This document shows, piece by piece, positions 13,442 to 23,097 of a stretch of DNA of 64,000 nucleotides. Every line of letters starts with the position of its first letter. Positions within the stretch are counted from its first letter, which is position 1. A program made the translations under genes and the position numbers. The stretch is from Calditrichales bacterium. Lineage in GTDB: Bacteria; Calditrichota; Calditrichia; Calditrichales; J004. The notes under the pieces are model-generated. The model saw nothing but the letters and a program-made list of their open reading frames with translations. It searched no databases and had not been told where the DNA came from. Location of the stretch: NCBI GenBank assembly GCA_965267575.1, contig OZ254086.1, forward strand, positions 1,312,001 to 1,376,000. Direction: 5' to 3'.

Positions 13442-13926
13442 TTTACTTCCAACTTCTCTTTTAATTTTTGCGCTACATGCGCTGTTACAAAACTATCTAC
13501 ATTCCCGCCAAATTTAGCAACATCTTTTACGATTGTCGAGTTCAGATAAGTATATTTTTCATTGGGCATCAGAAAAACAGTCGTTATCTCATTGGCCAGC
13601 TTTCTGTTCATCAGGGCCATCTGGAATTCGTATTCAAAATCGGTTACGGCGCGCAACCCACGGATTAAAACCAGCGCGTTTTTGCTTTGCGCAAAGTCCA
13701 CCAGCAGGCCATCGAAAGAGCTGACGCTTACATTATCAAAACCATTGATCGCGTCTTTAATCATCTCTATCCGCTCGTCAATCGTAAACAAAGGTTTTTT
13801 GGATTGGTTTTTAGCGATCGTAACGATCACCTGGCCAAAAATATGGCGGGCTCTTTCAATTATATCTATATGGCCCCGCGTTATCGGGTCAAAAGTCCCG
13901 GGATATATGGCAATATTTTTTCGCAT
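13438..13926 (-). CDS. coaD: Phosphopantetheine adenylyltransferase
   Basis: YPGTFDPITRGH, RGLRAVTDFEYE. Confidence 0.97.
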   Translation of the reverse strand: MRKNIAIYPGTFDPITRGHIDIIERARHIFGQVIVTIAKNQSKKPLFTIDERIEMIKDAINGFDNVSVSSFDGLLVDFAQSKNALVLIRGLRAVTDFEYEFQMALMNRKLANEITTVFLMPNEKYTYLNSTIVKDVAKFGGNVDSFVTAHVAQKLKEKLEVK

Positions 13927-14477
13927 TAGCGCATCCTTTTTTCAATAAAAGATACAAAGCTTCTGCCCATTTTCTTTTGCTTAAATATATTATACGCGGG
14001 ATCGGATTGCGGCAAGGGATTTATTACTTCGTGCTCAACAACCAGAAGATCACCCGCCCGAAAAATTTCCGATGTACAATAATTGCGGACCAATGTAGGT
14101 AAGGTGGGATAGTGAAAGGGCGGGTCCATGAACGTAACCTCAAACGGTCGTTCACGTTTTTCTGCAAAGGATTCCGTTGTAAGGCTGAGTATGGAAAAAA
14201 GTGAAGGGGCTATTTCAAGTTGCTGCAAATTCTTTTTCAAAACAGCGATAGACGTTTCGCTCTTTTCAACGAACGTTACGTGGCCGGCACCTCGGCTTAA
14301 GGCCTCAATCCCCAGGCTGCCGCTGCCGGCGAAACAATCCGCCACACTTTTAGAGGAAACAAAATCCTGCAGAATAGAAAAGATATATTCCTTAACACGA
14401 TCGGTGGTGGGCCTTATGGAAAGGTCTTTTCCGGCACCAAGCTTTCTGCCCTTGAATTTTCCCGATATCACCCTCAT
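13926..14477 (-). CDS. rsmD: 16S rRNA m2G966 methyltransferase
   Basis: MRVISGKFKGRKL, RPTTDRVKE, FAGSGSLGIEALSRGA, DPPF. Confidence 0.95.
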   Translation of the reverse strand: MRVISGKFKGRKLGAGKDLSIRPTTDRVKEYIFSILQDFVSSKSVADCFAGSGSLGIEALSRGAGHVTFVEKSETSIAVLKKNLQQLEIAPSLFSILSLTTESFAEKRERPFEVTFMDPPFHYPTLPTLVRNYCTSEIFRAGDLLVVEHEVINPLPQSDPAYNIFKQKKMGRSFVSFIEKRMR

Positions 14478-14482
14478 CGCTT

Positions 14483-15694
14483 TTAAACAAATACTTCGAG
14501 AACAAAAGAAAGCCTGTAATTAGCATCTTTGTAGGTGCTCTGATTGGTTGAGCTCAGGCTCATCTTGTAAATGCTGAAATGTACGCCCTCACCGGAAATC
14601 TGGTTAATCAAAGCCTGGCAAGCGCTTAGGGAACCAACAAACTGGCCTGTTACATGAAACTTCTGAAATTCATTTTGCTTGGTGATATACTGGTTCTCAA
14701 GTCCGCGCAGTTGCGCCCCCCGCGATTGTGATATCGATTTCAGCCAGTCTTCGGCTTCCTTGATCGTGCTGAAACGCAGTTCAGGGTTTTGCGCACTGGC
14801 AGAGGATCCGCCCGCACCTGCCAGGTTTCCTTTAAAGACATTCAGGATGCCGTTGCCGGGCCGGTCGGTGGAAGAAACAACTTCAACAGACATTTTGTCT
14901 TTAATGGCCATATTAAAGCGGGCCAGGTCTGCGCGATCGTCTCCGTAAACTTCAAACAGAAACTCATCACCGTAAATATGCAGAATAGAGAGTCGTGCGG
15001 AATTGTTGTTAAGCAGTGAAAGCACGTTGCCAACAGAGGCCTGGGTCTGCTGCGAGCGGCTGTTCAGGCTTCCCAGGAAAGCCCGCTTTTGCTGCAGAAG
15101 CTGTTGCTGCTGCTGTTGCTCTGCGGTCAGCGCCTGCTCGTCGGTCTGCTCGGTTTGGGCCTGTTGTTCTTCACCGTTGCCAAGAAAGAAATAATCGATG
15201 GCAAAATAGGCCGAAACCAAAACTACGAGGGCGATCGCCGCAATCAGAATGGGCTTGTAGTTCGGGGAATCCTGTTTTTCGTCCTGATACTCTTCGGTTT
15301 CCGGCCCTGGCTGCTTTTCTTCTCTGTGAGTTTCAGGTTCAACTTCTGTAAATGATGGTGCGGCTGTTTTTTCAAAGGTGTCCAGCTCTTCGGAAAAAGA
15401 TTCGTCCTCTTCGTCTTCAAAATCCTCTATTTCAGGCTCAAAGGTCTCTTCTTCATCAGCCAGAAGGTCATCCGGCTCTTCATGCGCTTCATCTTCGGAA
15501 AGCAATTCTTCATCTTCAACGGAGGTTATATCAAGAAGATCTTCGTCCTCTTCAACGGACCGTTTTTCTTCCTGGAATTCTTCCTCTTGCTTAGCGGATT
15601 CCTGATCCTTTTTTTCCTTTTTTTCTTCACGACCGAAGATATCATCATCTTCTTTAAAAATGTCGTCGTCTTCCAGCAGATTATATTTTGCCAT
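14483..15694 (-). CDS. Membrane protein with acidic N-terminal tail and PilN-like plus PilO-like periplasmic domains
   Basis: N-terminal YNLL motif, about 140 aa D/E-rich region, one TM, Q-rich coil, two ferredoxin-like segments resembling PilN and PilO. Confidence 0.6.
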   Translation of the reverse strand: MAKYNLLEDDDIFKEDDDIFGREEKKEKKDQESAKQEEEFQEEKRSVEEDEDLLDITSVEDEELLSEDEAHEEPDDLLADEEETFEPEIEDFEDEEDESFSEELDTFEKTAAPSFTEVEPETHREEKQPGPETEEYQDEKQDSPNYKPILIAAIALVVLVSAYFAIDYFFLGNGEEQQAQTEQTDEQALTAEQQQQQQLLQQKRAFLGSLNSRSQQTQASVGNVLSLLNNNSARLSILHIYGDEFLFEVYGDDRADLARFNMAIKDKMSVEVVSSTDRPGNGILNVFKGNLAGAGGSSASAQNPELRFSTIKEAEDWLKSISQSRGAQLRGLENQYITKQNEFQKFHVTGQFVGSLSACQALINQISGEGVHFSIYKMSLSSTNQSTYKDANYRLSFVLEVFV

Positions 15695-15717
15695 AACTCC
15701 TCCCAGATCGGAATCAA

Positions 15718-16614
15718 TTAAAGGATCGAACCATAGGCTTCGAGATACTTAAAGGCATCTCTTCCGGGAAGCTCATTCAGCCTGGCCTTGCTCACCGGCG
15801 AAGATATCCCGGATACGATCGTATCAAAATCCTTGTTTGTTAGAGCGCTGCCAAATACAATTATATTAATAGTTGGTGTATTTACAAAAGGCAATTGTGC
15901 CGTAAGCTGAGAAATCTGTTTATAGCGCTCACGTGTCAGATCGGAAATATTTTGCAAACGGCTCTTGTCCGCAGTCGGTGCAATTGAATCCACATAGGAT
16001 GAATAATAATTTCCCGAAAAAAAGATGTGGTGTTCCAGGTAATATTCTCCCAGCTTAATCACGATAAAATTATCACCCGGCTTTAGTTCCTTCTCGCGCA
16101 AAAGATAGTTTTCCAGCGAAAAACAGTTTATTAAAATGCCCTGTAATTGCGATTGTGTGTTGTCCGCCATTTCCTTTAAAGTCTTTAACATGCTTTTGCT
16201 AATGGCAACAACCGTTGCTTCCGAAATTGCCTTGTCTCGTTCTATCTGCTTTAAAACCGATACCCTGTACTTGTCTATTTCCTCCGGCAAACTGTGCGAA
16301 AACTCCCATGCTATGTGCTGGCGAATTTCCTCTTTTGTTTCATCCGAGGGATAAATAACGTTTTTAGTGTATGCCTGGTTAAAGGGCAGGGCAACGATAA
16401 TACCGTTTTCCGTGATACCGCTTTCCTGCTTTAAGGCCGAGATGGCGTCCGCTATCTGCCGAATATTTGCTTCGTTAAAAAGCATATCCGGACGGTAGTC
16501 ATCTTTATAAAGATGCTCTTCGGCCTTTACGATATGACAGGACGAATCGTCGGTCTGAGCGTAAACGAGCTGAAATGCGCGGTCTGACAGTGATAAGCTG
16601 ATAACGTGATCCAT
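15718..16614 (-). CDS. PilM-like actin-fold protein with degenerate nucleotide-binding motifs
   Basis: GIIVALP, EIRQHIAWEFSHSLP, VVAISKSML, SLEN and FIVIKLG follow the PilM pattern; the DxG phosphate motifs are not conserved. Confidence 0.65.
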   Translation of the reverse strand: MDHVISLSLSDRAFQLVYAQTDDSSCHIVKAEEHLYKDDYRPDMLFNEANIRQIADAISALKQESGITENGIIVALPFNQAYTKNVIYPSDETKEEIRQHIAWEFSHSLPEEIDKYRVSVLKQIERDKAISEATVVAISKSMLKTLKEMADNTQSQLQGILINCFSLENYLLREKELKPGDNFIVIKLGEYYLEHHIFFSGNYYSSYVDSIAPTADKSRLQNISDLTRERYKQISQLTAQLPFVNTPTINIIVFGSALTNKDFDTIVSGISSPVSKARLNELPGRDAFKYLEAYGSIL

Positions 16615-16616
16615 AG

Positions 16617-16649
16617 AAAAAATATACGGCCACCCATGGGTGACCGTAT
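16617..16649 (-). terminator. Intrinsic terminator/attenuator after the 565-aa gene
   Basis: Minus strand ATACGGTCACCC-AT-GGGTGGCCGTAT followed by ATTTTTT. Confidence 0.7.
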
Positions 16650-16665
16650 TTCGCTTTAAACAGGC

Positions 16666-18363
16666 TTACTGGTTGTTTTCTTTTTCTTCCCAGCTTTTGG
16701 TGTTTTTATGAACATAGCCCATATTTTGAATGGTCTTTTTAAATACGCCCATTACCGTAATCTTTTTACCTTCTTCGGCAAAACGGAAAGCATCTTCCAG
16801 CTGCGCCTGAAGAGATTTAAATTTTTCTGTTGAAACCGCTCCGGAAGGCTGTTTGATATCAGCCAGCAGCGTTTCCAGCTGCTCTTTTTCCGCATCAAAC
16901 GGCTCTACTCCCCGCGGAAGCCTTCTCAGGTCAGCCAGCAGTCCGTTAAAGTCGGTCAGATCGTTTTGAATACCGGTATGTAATGAATCGATGTTGTCAA
17001 AAAGATTACCGCCATAAAGCTGTTCAAAAATGATAATGGAATTGCGCGCATTTTCAACCGCCTTTTCCAACTCACTGAAACTATTTGAATTATTATAGAC
17101 GTTTACAAAATTGCGCAGGTCGGCAGCCGCAGTATACTCGCTGCTTTGCAGAAACTTATTGATCTTCTCTTCGATCTCTTTGTTTTTCACGGTAATTTCT
17201 ATATTACGGCGCAATTCGCCTTTGATATCCAAACCTTTTTGGTAGATCGCTTCCAGCGTATCGTGATAGGTGAAAAACGCGTTTAAAAAACCGAATCCGG
17301 TTACTTCATCCACAACAGGCTTTACTTTTTCTTTAAGGTCATCCAGCAGTAACGGACTTTCCACTTTTACATCTTTACCGTCCTCATCAATTTCAATCAA
17401 ATACAACTTACCGCTAACAGGGCTGGAGAACTTTTCCTTTGTCAAGGTCAGGATCATGGAATCGCTTTCCGAAAGGCGATACATAGCGCTGCGACTCGTT
17501 ACAATAAAATCGGCCAGAAACTGCTGGTACGTTTTTTCCAGAGATTCTCTTAATTCTTCTGCCCGGGAAAGATCTTCCGTACTGTTAGCCTTCTTGATCG
17601 TTTGCAGGCCGGACGTTACATCTGCAGCAAAATCCTTGATGCGGTCTGCCACACTGGTAAACTGACTTACCTCTGAGTTGTCTACGCGATCATTAAACGC
17701 AGCCAGACGGTTATCCAGTGTTGTCCATTCGCTTTCAAAATTCGTCCAGTTTACCGACGGCAAATAAGGATTGAGATGGGTTACGTTGTCTTTAGCCCGG
17801 GAAGCAGCTGTTTGCAGATTGTAATCTGACAGGTCGCGGCGAAGCTGATGCAGTGAATCCAATGAGTGAACGGCTACGGCCAGATTGGGATAGGCCACGT
17901 CGTTTTCAAACTCTGAAAGCTGGAGACGTAACTCACTGGCTTCATTGAGAATAGATTCATCCGCCCGGAAATATCGCTCGTTTGCTTCCAGGTCGTCTTT
18001 AATGTTATCGATATTTTGATATACCTTCACAAAACCATCTATCGTTGGGATGGAAAGATAATTATCTATTTGATTCATAAGCTGGATCGTGTAGTCGACG
18101 ATTTTTTGATTTTGATGTATGGCGGAATCGTTTTTAACGACCTGCAGCAGAGTATCAATGTCCGTGGTAAAAGAGCCGGTTAAACGGGAAAAATATTTTT
18201 CTGCTTCGTAGATGCTGGACATGTTATATCGGGATTGCTCTTGTTCCAATGCTTCTTCTTCCCAGATACTGTCCGGAATTTTGATTACGGCGATAAGAGC
18301 TCCAATTAAAACTACGATCAATATTTTATATAAAATGGAACCCTTTCCAGAAGACCTAGCCAT
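16666..18363 (-). CDS. Large N-terminally anchored pilin-like protein with two helical inserts
   Basis: Short basic leader and TM; SRYNMSSIYEAEKYFSRLTGSFTTDIDTL resembles the pilin alpha1-C segment; GGAGG RBS. The ORF is clear, the function uncertain. Confidence 0.55.
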   Translation of the reverse strand: MARSSGKGSILYKILIVVLIGALIAVIKIPDSIWEEEALEQEQSRYNMSSIYEAEKYFSRLTGSFTTDIDTLLQVVKNDSAIHQNQKIVDYTIQLMNQIDNYLSIPTIDGFVKVYQNIDNIKDDLEANERYFRADESILNEASELRLQLSEFENDVAYPNLAVAVHSLDSLHQLRRDLSDYNLQTAASRAKDNVTHLNPYLPSVNWTNFESEWTTLDNRLAAFNDRVDNSEVSQFTSVADRIKDFAADVTSGLQTIKKANSTEDLSRAEELRESLEKTYQQFLADFIVTSRSAMYRLSESDSMILTLTKEKFSSPVSGKLYLIEIDEDGKDVKVESPLLLDDLKEKVKPVVDEVTGFGFLNAFFTYHDTLEAIYQKGLDIKGELRRNIEITVKNKEIEEKINKFLQSSEYTAAADLRNFVNVYNNSNSFSELEKAVENARNSIIIFEQLYGGNLFDNIDSLHTGIQNDLTDFNGLLADLRRLPRGVEPFDAEKEQLETLLADIKQPSGAVSTEKFKSLQAQLEDAFRFAEEGKKITVMGVFKKTIQNMGYVHKNTKSWEEKENNQ

Positions 18364-18425
18364 CCTACCTCCAAAAACTTAGGTGTGAGCAAAAAGTGGA
18401 ATCTATATAAAGTATTAGGGAAATT

Positions 18426-18454
18426 AAATTAACCATTACTTAAATTAATGTCAA
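18426..18454 (-). promoter_or_regulatory. Putative strong promoter for the 565-aa gene
   Basis: Minus strand TTGACA-17 nt-TAATTT. Confidence 0.65.
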
Positions 18455-18529
18455 TTGTTTTGGCGTCTTGTTTTTTGCCGTAAGATATCGAAAATTCAGG
18501 CATTTATAAAGGTTTATGAGGATAAAATT

Positions 18530-20515
18530 GTGAATAAATTAATGCTTTTGACAATCTGTGCTTTTTGCATGATGAACTGTTCAAAAAGTCCTTCCGTTAA
18601 CAAGGAATTTGTAAGCCAAATCAAAGGCCTTGAATATGGCAGAGTGACTTCCCCGGCAAGGTGGGATAAGATTTACAACGAAGCCACCGGTCAGGATCAG
18701 AAGATGCTTATTGCAGAAGCCGCCGGAAAAGTCAAGTCCGACTCGCTTCTTTCTGCTTTTGAAGGTTGGCTCAGGCCTGAAAACAATGATACCTTAAACA
18801 GCGCTCTTCTTTTTGCGATTGGACAAACACAAAGCGCCAGGGCGGAATCACTGCTTCTTGAATTAAGTAAGGGCTTTTCAGATGCTGACGGTCTTAGAAT
18901 GATAATTAGCGGTCTTCGTCAATGCGGCAGCGAAAAATCTTTTCCGCTGTTATATGAACTTGCACAACGCGACCCTTTACGTGACGATGCGCTTGTGGCG
19001 GCCGGTGTATTGTCCCGCAAAAATCCTGTCGATAAAGCCTTTCTTGATATGGTTTCCGATTCCCTTTGGCCATATCATGGTCACTTTTCCACGGCCTATT
19101 TTTTGTATAACAGCCGAGATAAAAAGGACATACCCTTTTTTCTTACAAAAGCCCTCGAAAGTGATTCAGTTGCCAGGCAATACTACATAAAGGCAGCCGC
19201 CGCTAAAATAAACGATCGTTATCAGCTGGCGTCTGCGGTTGACTCCGTAACCTTTTCCGCTTTGCAATCCGGTATGCGCCAATTGCTCAAGTCCAGATCT
19301 TCCTGGATGGAAAAGCTTCACCTGCTTGCTGTTGCGCCGGTGTTCGCGGACAGCACGGATATTCCTGTTTTAAAACGCTTTATGGGCTCCGCCAATCCTC
19401 ACTTAAAGGAAGCCGCTATTTCAGCGTTCTCCAGGACTTTTGGCCCAAAATCCATTCAGGACCTGATACGAATTATGGAGCAGGAGCAAAGCTGGAGCCT
19501 GCATGGCCATATTATTTATCAGATAACACTGCTCGATCCGCGTTTGGGCTACCGCTACATAAACCAAAACCTTGACAAGGGCAGTGAGACATTTAAACAA
19601 AAACTGTTGGAAGCGCTCAGCCTGATCGATGAACCGATCGCCGTGCAAACGCTGAGAAGCTTTCTGAACGTTAATTCCGACCGGCTGGCCTACACTGCTT
19701 TTCGTATCCTGAGTCAGAAAAATATTGTCACCCGTGACGAGGCCCGGCAGCTGCTTATGCGCAATGATTTTGCCCTTGTACATGATGTTTTGCAGTGGCA
19801 CATAGACAAAGGTCTTGACATCCCAAAAGAAAAACTACTAATGCTTTATGCGGATAATGACCGGCAGGATATGCCTGAAATACAGTCACAGGTACTTAAA
19901 ATAATTTCGGATCGCAATATATCTCTTTCAGCTGAAGAAAAATCGTTGCTGGTTAATAACGGTACCTATGCGGTATGTGAAAAAGTAAAGTTACTAACGG
20001 AAGACATGCCCGAAGCCAGCTTATCCTCAACACGTCCTGCTTTTGCAGATGGAGATAGTGTCGCGGCCTTGTTTGGTGAAGATTATTTTGCCAAGATCAA
20101 AACAAGCAAGGGTTCATTTACAATAATTTTTCTTGCCGAAGAGGCGCCGCTTACAGTATTAAGTTTCATTCGCTTAAGTGAAAAAGGGTTTTATAATGGA
20201 TTAACCTTTCACCGGGTGGTGCCCGATTTCGTAGTACAAGGAGGGGATCCCTCGGGTGGGGGCTGGGGCGGACCCGGATATACCATACCTTCGGAAGATA
20301 ATGACGTTCCCTTCATGCGCGGTTCCGTTGGTATCGCAACTGCCGGTTTCGATACAGGCGGCAGCCAGTTTTTTATTTGTCATTCACGGCAGCCGCACTT
20401 GCTGGGCAATTACGCAAATTTTGCGTTTGTGATTGATGGGATGGAAATTGTAGATACTATCGTAAAGGATGATGTAATAGAGGAAATTACAGTTTATCGT
20501 GGCTCCCCTAACTAA
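18530..20515 (+). CDS. HEAT-repeat lipoprotein with C-terminal cyclophilin-type PPIase
   Basis: GTG start after GAGGA; lipobox-like MMNC; HEAT-like repeats; FYNGLTFHRVVPDFVVQGGDP and GGSQFFI. Confidence 0.85.
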   Translation: MNKLMLLTICAFCMMNCSKSPSVNKEFVSQIKGLEYGRVTSPARWDKIYNEATGQDQKMLIAEAAGKVKSDSLLSAFEGWLRPENNDTLNSALLFAIGQTQSARAESLLLELSKGFSDADGLRMIISGLRQCGSEKSFPLLYELAQRDPLRDDALVAAGVLSRKNPVDKAFLDMVSDSLWPYHGHFSTAYFLYNSRDKKDIPFFLTKALESDSVARQYYIKAAAAKINDRYQLASAVDSVTFSALQSGMRQLLKSRSSWMEKLHLLAVAPVFADSTDIPVLKRFMGSANPHLKEAAISAFSRTFGPKSIQDLIRIMEQEQSWSLHGHIIYQITLLDPRLGYRYINQNLDKGSETFKQKLLEALSLIDEPIAVQTLRSFLNVNSDRLAYTAFRILSQKNIVTRDEARQLLMRNDFALVHDVLQWHIDKGLDIPKEKLLMLYADNDRQDMPEIQSQVLKIISDRNISLSAEEKSLLVNNGTYAVCEKVKLLTEDMPEASLSSTRPAFADGDSVAALFGEDYFAKIKTSKGSFTIIFLAEEAPLTVLSFIRLSEKGFYNGLTFHRVVPDFVVQGGDPSGGGWGGPGYTIPSEDNDVPFMRGSVGIATAGFDTGGSQFFICHSRQPHLLGNYANFAFVIDGMEIVDTIVKDDVIEEITVYRGSPN

Positions 20516-20527
20516 AAGGAGGGAAAT

Positions 20528-21286
20528 ATGTGGCGGGTGTTCTTTTTTTCTTTTTTGATTGTCGCCTTTTCAAAGGCACAGCTTGTTGAAGAATCTGTCG
20601 ATTATTATATGGCTGAGGGGGATTCTGCATATGCCAATTTCGAAAATGAGGAGGCGCTTGAGAATTATCTTAAGGTCATCGAGCTTGATGCGGATAATTA
20701 TGATGCCCACTGGAAAGCGTCCCGGGCTTATCTTGACATAGGTGAAATTCTGACCGGAGAGAAACGGCCTGAATATTACAAAAAGGGAGAGGAGCACGCG
20801 CGGCGGGCCATCGAGATACAGCCTGAAGGCAGTATGGGTCACTTGTTTTTGAGCGTGGCGCTTGGCCGCGTTGCGCTGGATGCCAGTGCCAAGGAGCGCA
20901 TTCGCATGTCCAAGGAAATAAAAAAAGAGGTGGATCTTGCCATTCAGTACGATCCGCGTAATGACATAGCCTACCACGTGCTCGGACGCTGGCACAGAAA
21001 AATAGCTAATCTCAGCTGGATTGAAAAGGGCTTTGCCAACATGTTTTTAGGTGGCGTCCCGGAAGAGGCCTCCAACGAAAGGGCCGTTGAAAACTTCAAA
21101 AAAGCGATTGAATTAAATCCCATGCATATAAATCACCATCTGGAATTGGGAATTACTTACATGTCTATGGGTAATGATAATGAGGCAATTATAGCGTTTA
21201 AAAAAGTTCTGGATCTGCCCCAAAGTGATGCTGATGATTTAAAATACAAGGCTGAAGCCAGCGAGTACCTGGAGGATTTACAGTAG
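20528..21286 (+). CDS. Secreted TPR protein, RMDN/RMD1-3-like
   Basis: Signal peptide; TPR pattern; YHVLGRWHRKIANLSWIEKGFANMFLGGVP segment. Confidence 0.75.
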   Translation: MWRVFFFSFLIVAFSKAQLVEESVDYYMAEGDSAYANFENEEALENYLKVIELDADNYDAHWKASRAYLDIGEILTGEKRPEYYKKGEEHARRAIEIQPEGSMGHLFLSVALGRVALDASAKERIRMSKEIKKEVDLAIQYDPRNDIAYHVLGRWHRKIANLSWIEKGFANMFLGGVPEEASNERAVENFKKAIELNPMHINHHLELGITYMSMGNDNEAIIAFKKVLDLPQSDADDLKYKAEASEYLEDLQ

Positions 21287-22486
21287 TTGCAGCGCATTTT
21301 TACCAAATATTCCGCAAACTTTAAAGGCATTTTATTTTTGCTGGCTTTATCGCTTATTGTGGGCGCGCTCTGGTACACACAGCAACTGGTAAATACATTA
21401 AAGGAAAAGTCGACTGAGTACATCAGTTTTCGGATAAAGGTGTTCGAAGAGAATATCAATAATCCCAATGCCGACATTGATGTCGGCTTTTTTTTTAATG
21501 AGGTTATACGTGGTTCGGACTATCCCATTATTTACACGGATACGGAAGGAAGGCCGCAGAGCTGGGTAAATATTTCTGCGCACCTGGATACGGTGACCAT
21601 TTTATCGCGCGAAGATTCTATTTTGCTAAGCAGCCGGTTGAATAAAATGAAGGTGGAAAACGAACCGCTTCCGATTACTTACCAGGGATCCGTTCTGGGT
21701 TATTATTATTATGGCCTTTCCCCTGAAATTTACCAGCTAAAGAATCTGCCCTTTATTGCCATTGGCGCCGGAATTGTTTTTGTTTTGATTGCTTATCTGG
21801 GTTTCGCTTATATCAAGAAAAGCGAGCAGCGCAATATATGGGTTGGCATGGCCAAGGAAACGGCCCATCAGCTTGGCACACCGCTTAGTTCACTTTCAGG
21901 GTGGATTGAGCTTCTGCGTGAAAGCAATCCTGAGGACGGCCATTTGGTTGACGAAATGGCCAATGACCTGAAACGGCTTAACAAAATTGCCACGCGGTTC
22001 AGCAAAATTGGCTCCAAACCTAACCTGGACAGGGTCAATTTAGAGGAAGTAATAAAGGACGTTACCGTTTATTTCGGAAAGAGGCTGCCTCATATTCAGA
22101 AACAGGTTGGCATAGAATTATCATGTCCGCCGAATCTCATGGTTCTGCTCAACCGCGATCTTTTTGAATGGGTGCTGGAAAACATGCTCAAAAACGCCAT
22201 TGATGCAATCGAAAAAAAGAAAGGGAAAATAAAAATTACGGCTGGCCCGGAAGAACGTAACGATTTGGTGGCTATAGACATCAAAGACAATGGCAAGGGA
22301 ATGAATACTACTGAAAAGAAGAACATTTTCAAACCCGGCTATAGCACTAAAACGAGGGGTTGGGGTCTCGGGTTAAGCCTTGCCAAAAGGATTATTGAAG
22401 AGTATCATGACGGTAAGTTATTGCTTAAGGAGACCCGGCCGGGAAATGGAACGACTTTCCGTATCCTTCTTAAAATGCCGAAATGA
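21287..22486 (+). CDS. Sensor histidine kinase
   Basis: 2 TM; H-box ETAHQLGTPLS; N-box ENMLKNAIDA; DNGKG; FKPGYSTKTRGWGLGL. Confidence 0.93.
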   Translation: MQRIFTKYSANFKGILFLLALSLIVGALWYTQQLVNTLKEKSTEYISFRIKVFEENINNPNADIDVGFFFNEVIRGSDYPIIYTDTEGRPQSWVNISAHLDTVTILSREDSILLSSRLNKMKVENEPLPITYQGSVLGYYYYGLSPEIYQLKNLPFIAIGAGIVFVLIAYLGFAYIKKSEQRNIWVGMAKETAHQLGTPLSSLSGWIELLRESNPEDGHLVDEMANDLKRLNKIATRFSKIGSKPNLDRVNLEEVIKDVTVYFGKRLPHIQKQVGIELSCPPNLMVLLNRDLFEWVLENMLKNAIDAIEKKKGKIKITAGPEERNDLVAIDIKDNGKGMNTTEKKNIFKPGYSTKTRGWGLGLSLAKRIIEEYHDGKLLLKETRPGNGTTFRILLKMPK

Positions 22487-22503
22487 AAACATCCGGAGAT
22501 AAA

Positions 22504-23097
22504 ATGAAAAGAGCGACTTTTACTCGTCAAAAAGAATTTTCAGAACTGGCAGAACCGCATCTTTCGTCTTTGTACAGCACGGCCATGCGCATGACCCGCA
22601 ACAATCAGGATGCTGAAGATCTTGTACAGGATACGCTCTATAAAGCATATCGCGCGCTTAACCAGTTTCAGAAAAATACCAATTTCAGGGCCTGGATTTT
22701 CAAAATCCTTGTAAACACCTTTATTACCGGATACCGTAAAGCCGTCAAGCAGCCTAAAAAGGTGAGCTATGAGGATATTCATGAGTTCATTTTGTATAAG
22801 GGCGCCAAAATCGATGAAAGCCTGCTCTCTGATGACAGCAAAGTGGATATCATAAACCACTATTTTGATGACGAAATAAAGGAGGCACTTGAAAATCTTC
22901 CTTATCAGTTCAGGCTGGTCGTGCTGCTTTGTGACATTGAAGGGTTTTCCTATAACGAAATAGCACACATCATCGATGTGCCTCTTGGAACGGTTATGTC
23001 CCGGCTTTACAGGGGACGCCGTTTACTGCAACGAACGCTGTGGGATTACGCCAAAGAAAAAGGGTACGTCGGAGAACATACTCGGGTAAAAAAATAG
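22504..23097 (+). CDS. ECF RNA polymerase sigma factor (SigH/SigR-like)
   Basis: DAEDLVQDT, NFRAWIFKI, EGFSYNEIA..PLGTVMSRLYRGR; GGAGA RBS before 22504. Confidence 0.92.
   Translation: MKRATFTRQKEFSELAEPHLSSLYSTAMRMTRNNQDAEDLVQDTLYKAYRALNQFQKNTNFRAWIFKILVNTFITGYRKAVKQPKKVSYEDIHEFILYKGAKIDESLLSDDSKVDIINHYFDDEIKEALENLPYQFRLVVLLCDIEGFSYNEIAHIIDVPLGTVMSRLYRGRRLLQRTLWDYAKEKGYVGEHTRVKK

Follow-up and report, generated by a model that had tools for sequence, protein, structure and literature searches.

A motor-less relative of the type IV filament platform? Pilin-like, PilM-like and PilN-PilO-like proteins encoded beside rsmD and coaD in Calditrichota

Which function do three genes serve that resemble parts of a type IV filament (T4F) platform and lie next to the housekeeping genes rsmD and coaD? 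This question is raised by a stretch of 64,000 nucleotides from a Calditrichales bacterium (assembly GCA_965267575.1, contig OZ254086.1), which we refer to as the window and which covers positions 1,312,001-1,376,000 (G000:C1) of a closed 4.73-Mb genome. The initial annotation had described three co-oriented open reading frames (ORFs) directly upstream of rsmD-coaD-pta-FmdB-gltA, coding for a pilin-like protein, a PilM-like protein and a PilN-PilO fusion, here termed A, B and C. The coordinates proved to be exact, with all genes on the minus strand:

16666-18363, minus strand: gene A, 565 amino acids (aa), predicted pilin-fold protein with two large helical inserts ('giant pilin')
15718-16614, minus strand: gene B, 298 aa, divergent PilM-like actin-fold protein, predicted to be unable to bind ATP
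14483-15694, minus strand: gene C, 403 aa, predicted bitopic single-chain protein with a C-terminal domain (CTD) of the PilN/GspL type and one of the PilO/GspM type
13926-14477, minus strand: rsmD (PF03602 1.5e-44, TIGR00095 3.5e-44), beginning 5 nt past the stop codon of C

The genes 3' of rsmD on the same strand code for a coaD-type cytidylyltransferase, Pta, a Zn_ribbon_8 (FmdB-type) protein and citrate synthase (gltA). The homology of A, B and C to pilins and to platform parts of T4F machines is well supported. With moderate confidence, we propose that the trio branched off the T4F platform long ago and has since been inherited vertically in single copy, that it lacks a motor, PilC, secretin and peptidase of its own and that it is likely to form a fixed scaffold in the cell envelope. 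Our literature search found no paper describing the trio, and the parts of the C. abyssi genome paper covered by this search, which did not extend to the supplements, name the canonical 'Pili IV cluster' only (PMC5317091).

Three proteins related to type IV filament parts

The B family is small and divergent. Word-based protein searches found the window's B alone, and three proteins with the B profile, while an exhaustive HMMER search with B over 1.84 billion representatives returned 66 proteins at an expect value (E) of 0.001 or below, 56 of which were used for the B profile, with fragments and two long proteins left out. This profile matched PilM of M. xanthus (3jc8_M, E 3.2e-15), PilM of P. 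aeruginosa (5eox, 1e-4) and, weakly, FtsA (3wt0, 0.011). PF11104 matches 30 of the 56 family members, with a best E of 5.6e-24, and the Atlas model of one member, P0048 (predicted local distance difference test, pLDDT, 0.85), aligns in full length (residues 1-310) with PilM clusters at template-modelling scores of 0.79-0.88, which is in agreement with the PilM-like actin fold that had been suggested for B. In the alignment to PilM, both D-I-G phosphate motifs are gone: the column of the phosphate-1 Asp holds Ser in 41 of the 56 sequences and Asp in none, and that of the phosphate-2 Asp holds Lys in 35 and Asp in three. B is therefore predicted to have the PilM fold without binding ATP. The cytoplasmic domain of GspL has an actin-like fold and binds no ATP either. 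The genome also encodes a canonical PilM-like protein, with which B shares only 11% identity (hhalign probability 90%), indicating that B is an old paralogue of it.

Protein C is made up of the following parts, all of which are encoded on the minus strand:

15656-15694, minus strand: residues 1-13, PilN-like motif M-A-K-Y-N-L-L-E-D-D-D-I-F, with F13 in at least 90% of alignment rows
15185-15256, minus strand: residues 147-170, single transmembrane helix in the model, with a conserved N-Y-K-P just before it
14819-15061, minus strand: residues 212-292, predicted ferredoxin-like domain 1 of the GspL/PilN CTD type (from VIA-align)
14486-14770, minus strand: residues 309-403, predicted ferredoxin-like domain 2 of the PilO/GspM type (from VIA-align, profile and families)

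In an alignment of 19 C orthologues, the N-terminus is conserved and the acidic stretch after it poorly so; then come the conserved N-Y-K-P box, a hydrophobic helix and, towards the C-terminus, two conserved blocks. PilM binds a PilN motif of the I-N-L-L-P type, and judged by its residues the N-terminal motif of C seems close to it; in the deep families the N-termini read M-A-K-I-N-L-K or M-V-K-I-N-L-L, and the chimeric entry 5eou, 'PilM, PilN', is among the matches of the B profile. The following 132 residues (14-145) contain 60 acidic and 13 basic residues, resulting in a net charge of -47, as well as five short acidic-hydrophobic motifs. To our knowledge, canonical PilN has no such long acidic tail.

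In the AlphaFold model of C, built from 19 sequences, the pLDDT is 84-95 in the domains and stays below 50 for most of residues 1-141. The model shows the transmembrane helix 147-170, a long helix 191-230, a beta-beta-alpha-beta-beta unit (234-290) and an alpha-beta-beta-alpha-beta-beta unit (311-402), and thus has the single transmembrane helix, coiled coil and ferredoxin-like periplasmic domain of a PilN/GspL protein. With VIA-align, domain 1 was superimposed on the CTDs of PulL (8a9w, Z 6.9, root-mean-square deviation (rmsd) 1.3, 72/75 residues), XcpY (5n7l, Z 6.6) and EpsL (2w7v, Z 5.8), and domain 2 on the PilO core (5uvr, Z 7.2, rmsd 2.2, 89/98), the CTD of PulM (8a9x_D, Z 6.2) and EpsM (1uv7, Z 5.6), all Z values of the two domains lying in the range that the tool calls middling; full PilO (2rjz) reached a Z of 8.8. 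The assignment is persuasive because, for either domain, the top matches belong to a single functional family and span almost the entire target domain. Further agreement comes from Foldseek, which gave the PilO, XcpY and PulL rows a probability of 1.00, from the match of the C profile to 3jc8_O (E 1e-3) and from family matches among the 19 orthologues, eight of which carry T2SSM_b (PF10741) and three PilO (PF04350). PF05137 matches neither C nor any of these orthologues, and hhalign found nothing between the C profile and the canonical PilO-like protein of the genome (probability 2.4%). The PilN-PilO fusion named by the initial annotation is hence borne out as two tandem ferredoxin-like domains, the second of which is the C-terminal domain of C without a transmembrane helix of its own and not, like PilO, a separate bitopic protein.

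For A, the relationship to pilins is clearest at the N-terminus:

18178-18336, minus strand: residues 10-62, pilin-type alpha-1 helix; G8 corresponds to position -1, S9 to +1 and P30 to +22

Residues 11-67 of the A profile align in register with residues 3-59 of mature M. xanthus PilA (8tj2_C, E 4.7e-6), so that A can indeed be called pilin-like; matches to the Geobacter pilin (2.3e-3) and to GspG (0.022) were weaker. G8, S9 and P30 are invariant in an alignment of 18 rows and present in 29/29 N-termini printed, and A has the features of a class III signal, namely a short basic leader, Gly at -1, a hydrophobic alpha-1N and Pro22. Position +5 is Lys in 18 of the 29 sequences, including that of the window, Glu in nine, Val in one and Ile in one. 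No Pfam family was found for A or its 17 aligned orthologues, with no N_methyl (PF07963) match among these 18 proteins at E<=0.1, and the NCBIfam search gave only a weak PilA_Myxo match (0.065) and did not place A in TIGR02532.

The model of A is confident (pLDDT 89, predicted template-modelling score 0.72) and consists of a single helix (10-62), helical bundles at about 69-290 and 340-531, and short strands at 322-335 and 533-552. Foldseek found nothing for this model in the PDB at E<=0.001, and a wide VIA search was led by generic helical bundles with Z up to 10.7. The minor pilin PilE (4noa) followed at rank 35 with a Z of 7.8, a value that may reflect common arrangements (rmsd 3.1, 92/108 residues, spanning 35-564). 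In the Atlas model of the A homologue P0070, small pilins align via the N and C termini with low template-modelling scores. A sensor domain of the McpS type was also considered for A, and was rejected as too loose a fit to the ligand-binding domain 2yfa (Z 10.7, rmsd 10.5). We suggest from sequence and model that A has a pilin fold with two large inserts, the evidence being good for alpha-1 and weaker for the head. As A contains no cysteine, it has no disulphide-bonded D-region. In the same loci, identity to the respective window protein amounts to 28-50% for A, as compared to 19-36% for B and 25-36% for C; A is thus not a fast-evolving surface protein.

The locus across Calditrichota

Of 41 relatives' genomes, the window's own included, 38 gave a match to B. 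From the other 37 genomes, we fetched 18 loci and added ten loci from the four deepest families of the phylum, and in all 28 the order A-B-C-rsmD-coaD is preserved, which shows that the trio genes are real and not chance ORFs. Conservation in relatives, on which the initial annotation depended, is therefore phylum-wide. In the first 18 loci, tblastn detected A, rsmD and coaD in 18/18, C in 17/18 and B in 16/18, and reading the frames of L031 and L033 recovered the B and C ORFs that tblastn had missed there. All ten deep-family loci carry the five genes, with frames split in L050 (B) and L056 (A, B and gltA). Single-protein locus searches yielded one Calditrichia locus in genome contigs, none for P0059 and, for P0116, four short metagenome contigs, which are again Calditrichota-like (A profile 1e-198). 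An Atlas feature match to a 743-aa Fidelibacterota cluster (score 0.92) is a lead and not evidence.

Split A or B frames were seen in three loci in total, L021 (G007:C108), L050 (G042:C1) and L056 (G046:C6). In L056, gltA is in four pieces as well, and the splits of this locus are therefore more likely to be sequencing errors than pseudogenes.

The A profile matches 80 of the 86 genomes of the phylum and 51 of the 53 high-quality ones, mostly with one match each. We followed up five of the six A-negative genomes (G021, G028, G038, G044 and G045). As coaD is missing as well in G021 and G028, the A region is unassembled there, and in G038 coaD lies 1.8 kb from a contig end. The two remaining genomes, G044 and G045, represent genus g28, in which the locus is complete and lacks A, with about 200 nt from the peptidyl-prolyl isomerase (PPIase) gene to B. 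Both keep B, rsmD, coaD, pta and gltA, and C is present as one frame in G045 and as two frames in G044. The retention of B and C without A indicates that these two proteins are the core of the module.

The same observation could be taken to mean that B and C form an envelope or cytoskeleton-linked scaffold unrelated to filaments, FtsA-like with bitopic partners, to which A is an add-on, and that the link to rsmD-coaD dates from an old operon of housekeeping genes, common to this locus and to the DUF3822-RsmD pair of Bacteroides. The constant place among housekeeping genes, the 132-residue tail of C with its net charge of -47 and five motifs, which we do not know from canonical PilN, and the weak match of the B profile to FtsA are compatible with this. 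The initial annotation had raised a link to DUF3822, an actin-fold family, and the adjacency of DUF3822 and RsmD genes in Bacteroides is indeed described in a preprint passage (10.1101/2025.05.12.653583). The family itself did not turn up in the trio: PF12864 (DUF3822) has a single match in the genome, at 4.698 Mb (E 0.05) and not on B, and is absent both from the 25 listed of the 32 families matched by B-family members and from the family rows shown for the 30 Atlas models nearest to P0048. In addition, every domain of B and C best matches platform proteins of type IV pili or the type II secretion system (T2SS) and not of the divisome, and a protein with a pilin alpha-1 accompanies B and C in 80 of 86 genomes. 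We regard a scaffold of non-filament origin as quite unlikely.

The signals around the three genes are:

18426-18454, minus strand: promoter-like TTGACA-17 nt-TAATTT, read by eye, weak evidence
18368-18372, minus strand: GGAGG ribosome-binding site of A, 5 nt 5' of its ATG
16615-16649, minus strand: terminator-like hairpin between A and B, with an 11-bp stem and a T-run that extends to the ATG of B

A had been described as having a near-consensus promoter, a GGAGG ribosome-binding site and a terminator of its own. The latter two were found, the hairpin with its T-run being located at 16624-16649, whereas the promoter could only be retained in part: the TTGACA-17 nt-TAATTT sequence is there by eye, but its second hexamer matches only 3/6, the promoter scan did not list it, and the region holds 8 promoter-like sites as compared to 7.5 +/- 2.5 in shuffles, which is no enrichment. 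GGAGG is likewise found 5' of A in the relatives' loci examined. We folded the A-B spacers of the window and 17 relatives, leaving out L021 with its broken A frame and the ten deep-family loci. In 17 of these 18 spacers, a stable hairpin precedes a T-rich run, the sequences being unrelated; the exception is L033, whose spacer is 15 nt long. GGAGG sites precede A and C in most loci and B in none. The hairpin and T-run after A and this distribution of GGAGG sites suggest that A is probably made in excess over B and C. The rsmD gene, with its start 5 nt past the end of C, is probably co-transcribed.

No Shine-Dalgarno-like sequence precedes B in the window or in most relatives; its ATG follows directly on the terminator T-run. 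Divergent from A lies a gene for a 686-aa protein with HEAT repeats and a C-terminal cyclophilin PPIase domain (18455-20515, plus strand; PF00160 8.4e-32), followed by an RMD1-3/tetratricopeptide-repeat (TPR) protein gene, which is transcribed away from A (20528-21286, plus strand). The next stretch (21287-23097, plus strand) holds, as read from translations, a 399-aa ORF with C-terminal histidine-kinase-like sequence, which overlaps by 4 nt with the start of a 204-aa sigma-70/ECF-like ORF. The divergent PPIase gene, paired with the TPR protein gene, is found next to the trio in 17/18 order-level loci and only 2/10 deep-family loci and hence is not part of the core.

A further reading would make the trio part of a pseudopilus for DNA uptake. 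We consider this very improbable, as the flanking genes examined code for the PPIase, the TPR protein, RsmD, CoaD and Pta, with no ComEA-like gene among them, and the module is kept in nine genomes without a match to any T4F ATPase, which are described below.

Genomes without a detected motor and the possible role of the trio

The initial annotation had noted that no PilB/PilT ATPase, PilC, secretin or prepilin peptidase is encoded in the window, and had asked whether a separate canonical pilus cluster exists. Both points are answered by the genome: all matches to PF00437, PF00482, PF00263 and PF01478 lie at 4.018-4.032 Mb, 2.7 Mb from the window, and none lies within it. The canonical cluster located there codes for PilT-like and PilB-like ATPases, a secretin, a GspC/T2SSB-like and a PilO-like protein, PilC, an A24 peptidase (PilD), a PilM-like protein of 656 aa (Amuc_1101_fam 1.1e-18), a 569-aa PilX_N protein and three small pilins. 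Since this cluster is full, the trio does not fill a gap in it. The PilX_N-type protein (around 4,024,864-4,026,573, minus strand; 14865-16574 in L044) has no other family match and is a second, unrelated oversized pilin-like protein.

The presence of this cluster brings up the main rival to our proposal, in which canonical PilB, PilC and PilD are used in trans. The trio would then be an accessory platform relying on borrowed canonical parts: PilD would cleave A, PilB and PilC would assemble it into a pseudopilus or pilus, either by itself or as a minor or tip subunit, and B and C would act as a dedicated docking station. This possibility is kept alive by the invariant G-S-...-P of A, as the class III signal-like N-terminus (G-1, S+1, P22) is present in 29/29 sequences. 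Moreover, alpha-1 of A is in register with PilA, the strong ribosome-binding site followed by a terminator is a pilin-like gene layout, Glu is found at +5 in 9/29 orthologues, and the genome provides PilB, PilT, PilC, PilD, a secretin and three small pilins. On the other hand, +5 is Lys in 18/29 sequences, the window's among them, the canonical cluster has its own PilM-like, PilO-like and GspC-like proteins, and B is only 11% identical to canonical PilM and without the ATP-site aspartates. A is also more conserved than B and C, unlike exposed pilins, and has no cysteine and hence no disulphide-bonded D-region.

The distribution of the canonical parts within the phylum bears on the same question. 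The A24 peptidase (PF01478) was found in 60 and T2SSE (PF00437) in 75 of the 86 genomes. As tallied over the profile searches, 24 genomes have A and no A24 match, and 13 of these are at least 90% complete; the 13 include the closed genomes G065 and G082, in which no A24 match was obtained even at E<=1. Nine genomes have A and neither a T2SSE nor an A24 match (G001, G024, G025, G035, G041, G042, G043, G046 and G048), and five of them (G024, G025, G042, G046 and G048) are 91-94% complete. In total, eleven genomes lack both families, seven of which belong to one family (f6), and such a pattern is hard to put down to chance assembly gaps. An intact module in nine genomes that have neither match, of which five reach a completeness of 90% or more, is not what would be expected if A were assembled by the canonical machinery, and we judge its use in trans to be unlikely, although less so than an origin outside filament systems.

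T2SSE without a detectable A24 peptidase is seen in G065, G082, G063, G060 and many genomes of f5 and f8, with an ATPase of about 600 aa (E around 1e-105). These genomes have either a very divergent peptidase or an ATPase that works for something else than a filament built from prepilins.

We therefore return to the proposal of a fixed scaffold. By analogy to PilM and PilN, B would dock on the N-terminal peptide of C, and this peptide together with the acidic tail could tether B to the membrane. The two periplasmic domains of C might mimic the PilN-PilO (GspL-GspM) heterodimer in one chain, and alpha-1 of A may sit in the inner membrane beside C, as do pilins at PilNO or GspLM. B and C would form the core, and A would be an abundant periplasmic client of a fixed inner-membrane/periplasmic scaffold. 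As the module is kept without matches to a T4F ATPase or peptidase, and B and C are kept without A, this complex most likely spins out no fibre.

Several points weigh against this proposal. The window's B lies below the curated cut-offs of PF11104 (16.9 as compared to 27 bits) and TIGR01175 (25.8 as compared to 133), and the PilE match of A ranks below generic helical bundles. Gly -1, Ser +1 and Pro22 in 29/29 N-termini give A the look of a prepilin peptidase substrate, which argues for its cleavage at least where a peptidase exists, and eight of the nine orthologues with Glu at +5 come from genomes with an A24 match. Most genomes of the phylum (60/86 for A24 and 75/86 for T2SSE) have the machinery, and its use in trans is possible there. 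The absence calls rest on draft assemblies, which cannot prove absence, except for G065 and G082, and these two still carry T2SSE ATPases. We infer the fixed nature of the scaffold from missing parts and not from a positive observation.

A further-reaching version of the proposal is possible and, in our opinion, rather doubtful. B and C, with A in most lineages, might constitute an unrecognised T4F derivative, in which a motor-free scaffold permanently spans the membrane, the acidic tail ties an ATP-blind actin-fold protein to this membrane and a giant, non-polymerising pilin resides in the periplasm. Such a derivative would have been inherited together with rsmD-coaD since before the radiation of Calditrichota, and might be a fuller ancestral form of the lone actin-fold DUF3822 gene found beside rsmD in Bacteroidota.

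T4F machines are defined by their ATPase motor, and a platform with a pilin that is retained in single copy throughout a phylum, also in genomes without a detected motor or peptidase, would show that the parts can live independently. The trio further offers a natural single-chain PilN-PilO, an apparently ATP-blind PilM and a confidently modelled 565-residue protein with a predicted pilin fold. All relatives of A with a source name are called 'hypothetical', in the sources seen, the trio carries no label more specific than 'hypothetical' or 'PilM family', and Pfam holds no family for A, so that a name and a testable model would improve the annotation of the phylum.

Comparison with known systems

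Compared with PilM-PilN-PilO of type IVa pili (M. xanthus 3jc8; P. aeruginosa 5eox/5eou, 2rjz and 5uvr), the trio likewise comprises an actin-fold PilM homologue and a bitopic partner with an I/Y-N-L-L-type peptide, a periplasmic coiled coil and ferredoxin-like domains in the model, and a protein with a pilin-type alpha-1 is encoded alongside. Unlike in the type IVa pilus, the PilN-like and PilO-like domains are predicted to be in one chain, 132 acidic linker residues separate the peptide from the membrane, and B is without the ATP-site aspartates. The 'pilin' has 565 aa and mostly Lys at +5, and the operon contains no gene for PilP, PilQ, an ATPase, PilC or PilD and continues into rsmD-coaD.

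The T2SS proteins GspL and GspM (PulL/PulM 8a9w, 8a9x and 8ab1; XcpY 5n7l; EpsL 2w7v; EpsM 1uv7) resemble C in that, by superposition, domain 1 corresponds to the CTD of GspL and domain 2 to that of GspM, and 6/56 members of the B family match PF05134 (T2SSL). GspL joins an actin-like and a periplasmic domain in one protein, with GspM being separate, whereas in the trio B stands alone and the L-type and M-type domains appear to be fused. In contrast to T2SS, there is no GspE, GspF, GspC or GspD beside the trio.

A likeness in fold only, at middling Z values, was found between periplasmic C and Amuc_1100 of Akkermansia (6kny, Z 7.3 over 104 residues; 6laf, Z 6.5). The Amuc_1101_fam model matches B weakly (E 0.039), and more strongly the canonical PilM-like protein mentioned above. 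Unlike the trio, the pilus-like Amuc_1098-1102 cluster includes a secretin.

The last system for comparison is DUF3822 of Bacteroides. It differs from the trio in that PF12864 has no match on B and in that the preprint passage mentions no pilin-like or PilN/O-like partner. What the two have in common is their genetic location, as the DUF3822 gene is likewise an uncharacterised gene directly beside an RsmD-family methyltransferase gene, according to the same passage (10.1101/2025.05.12.653583).

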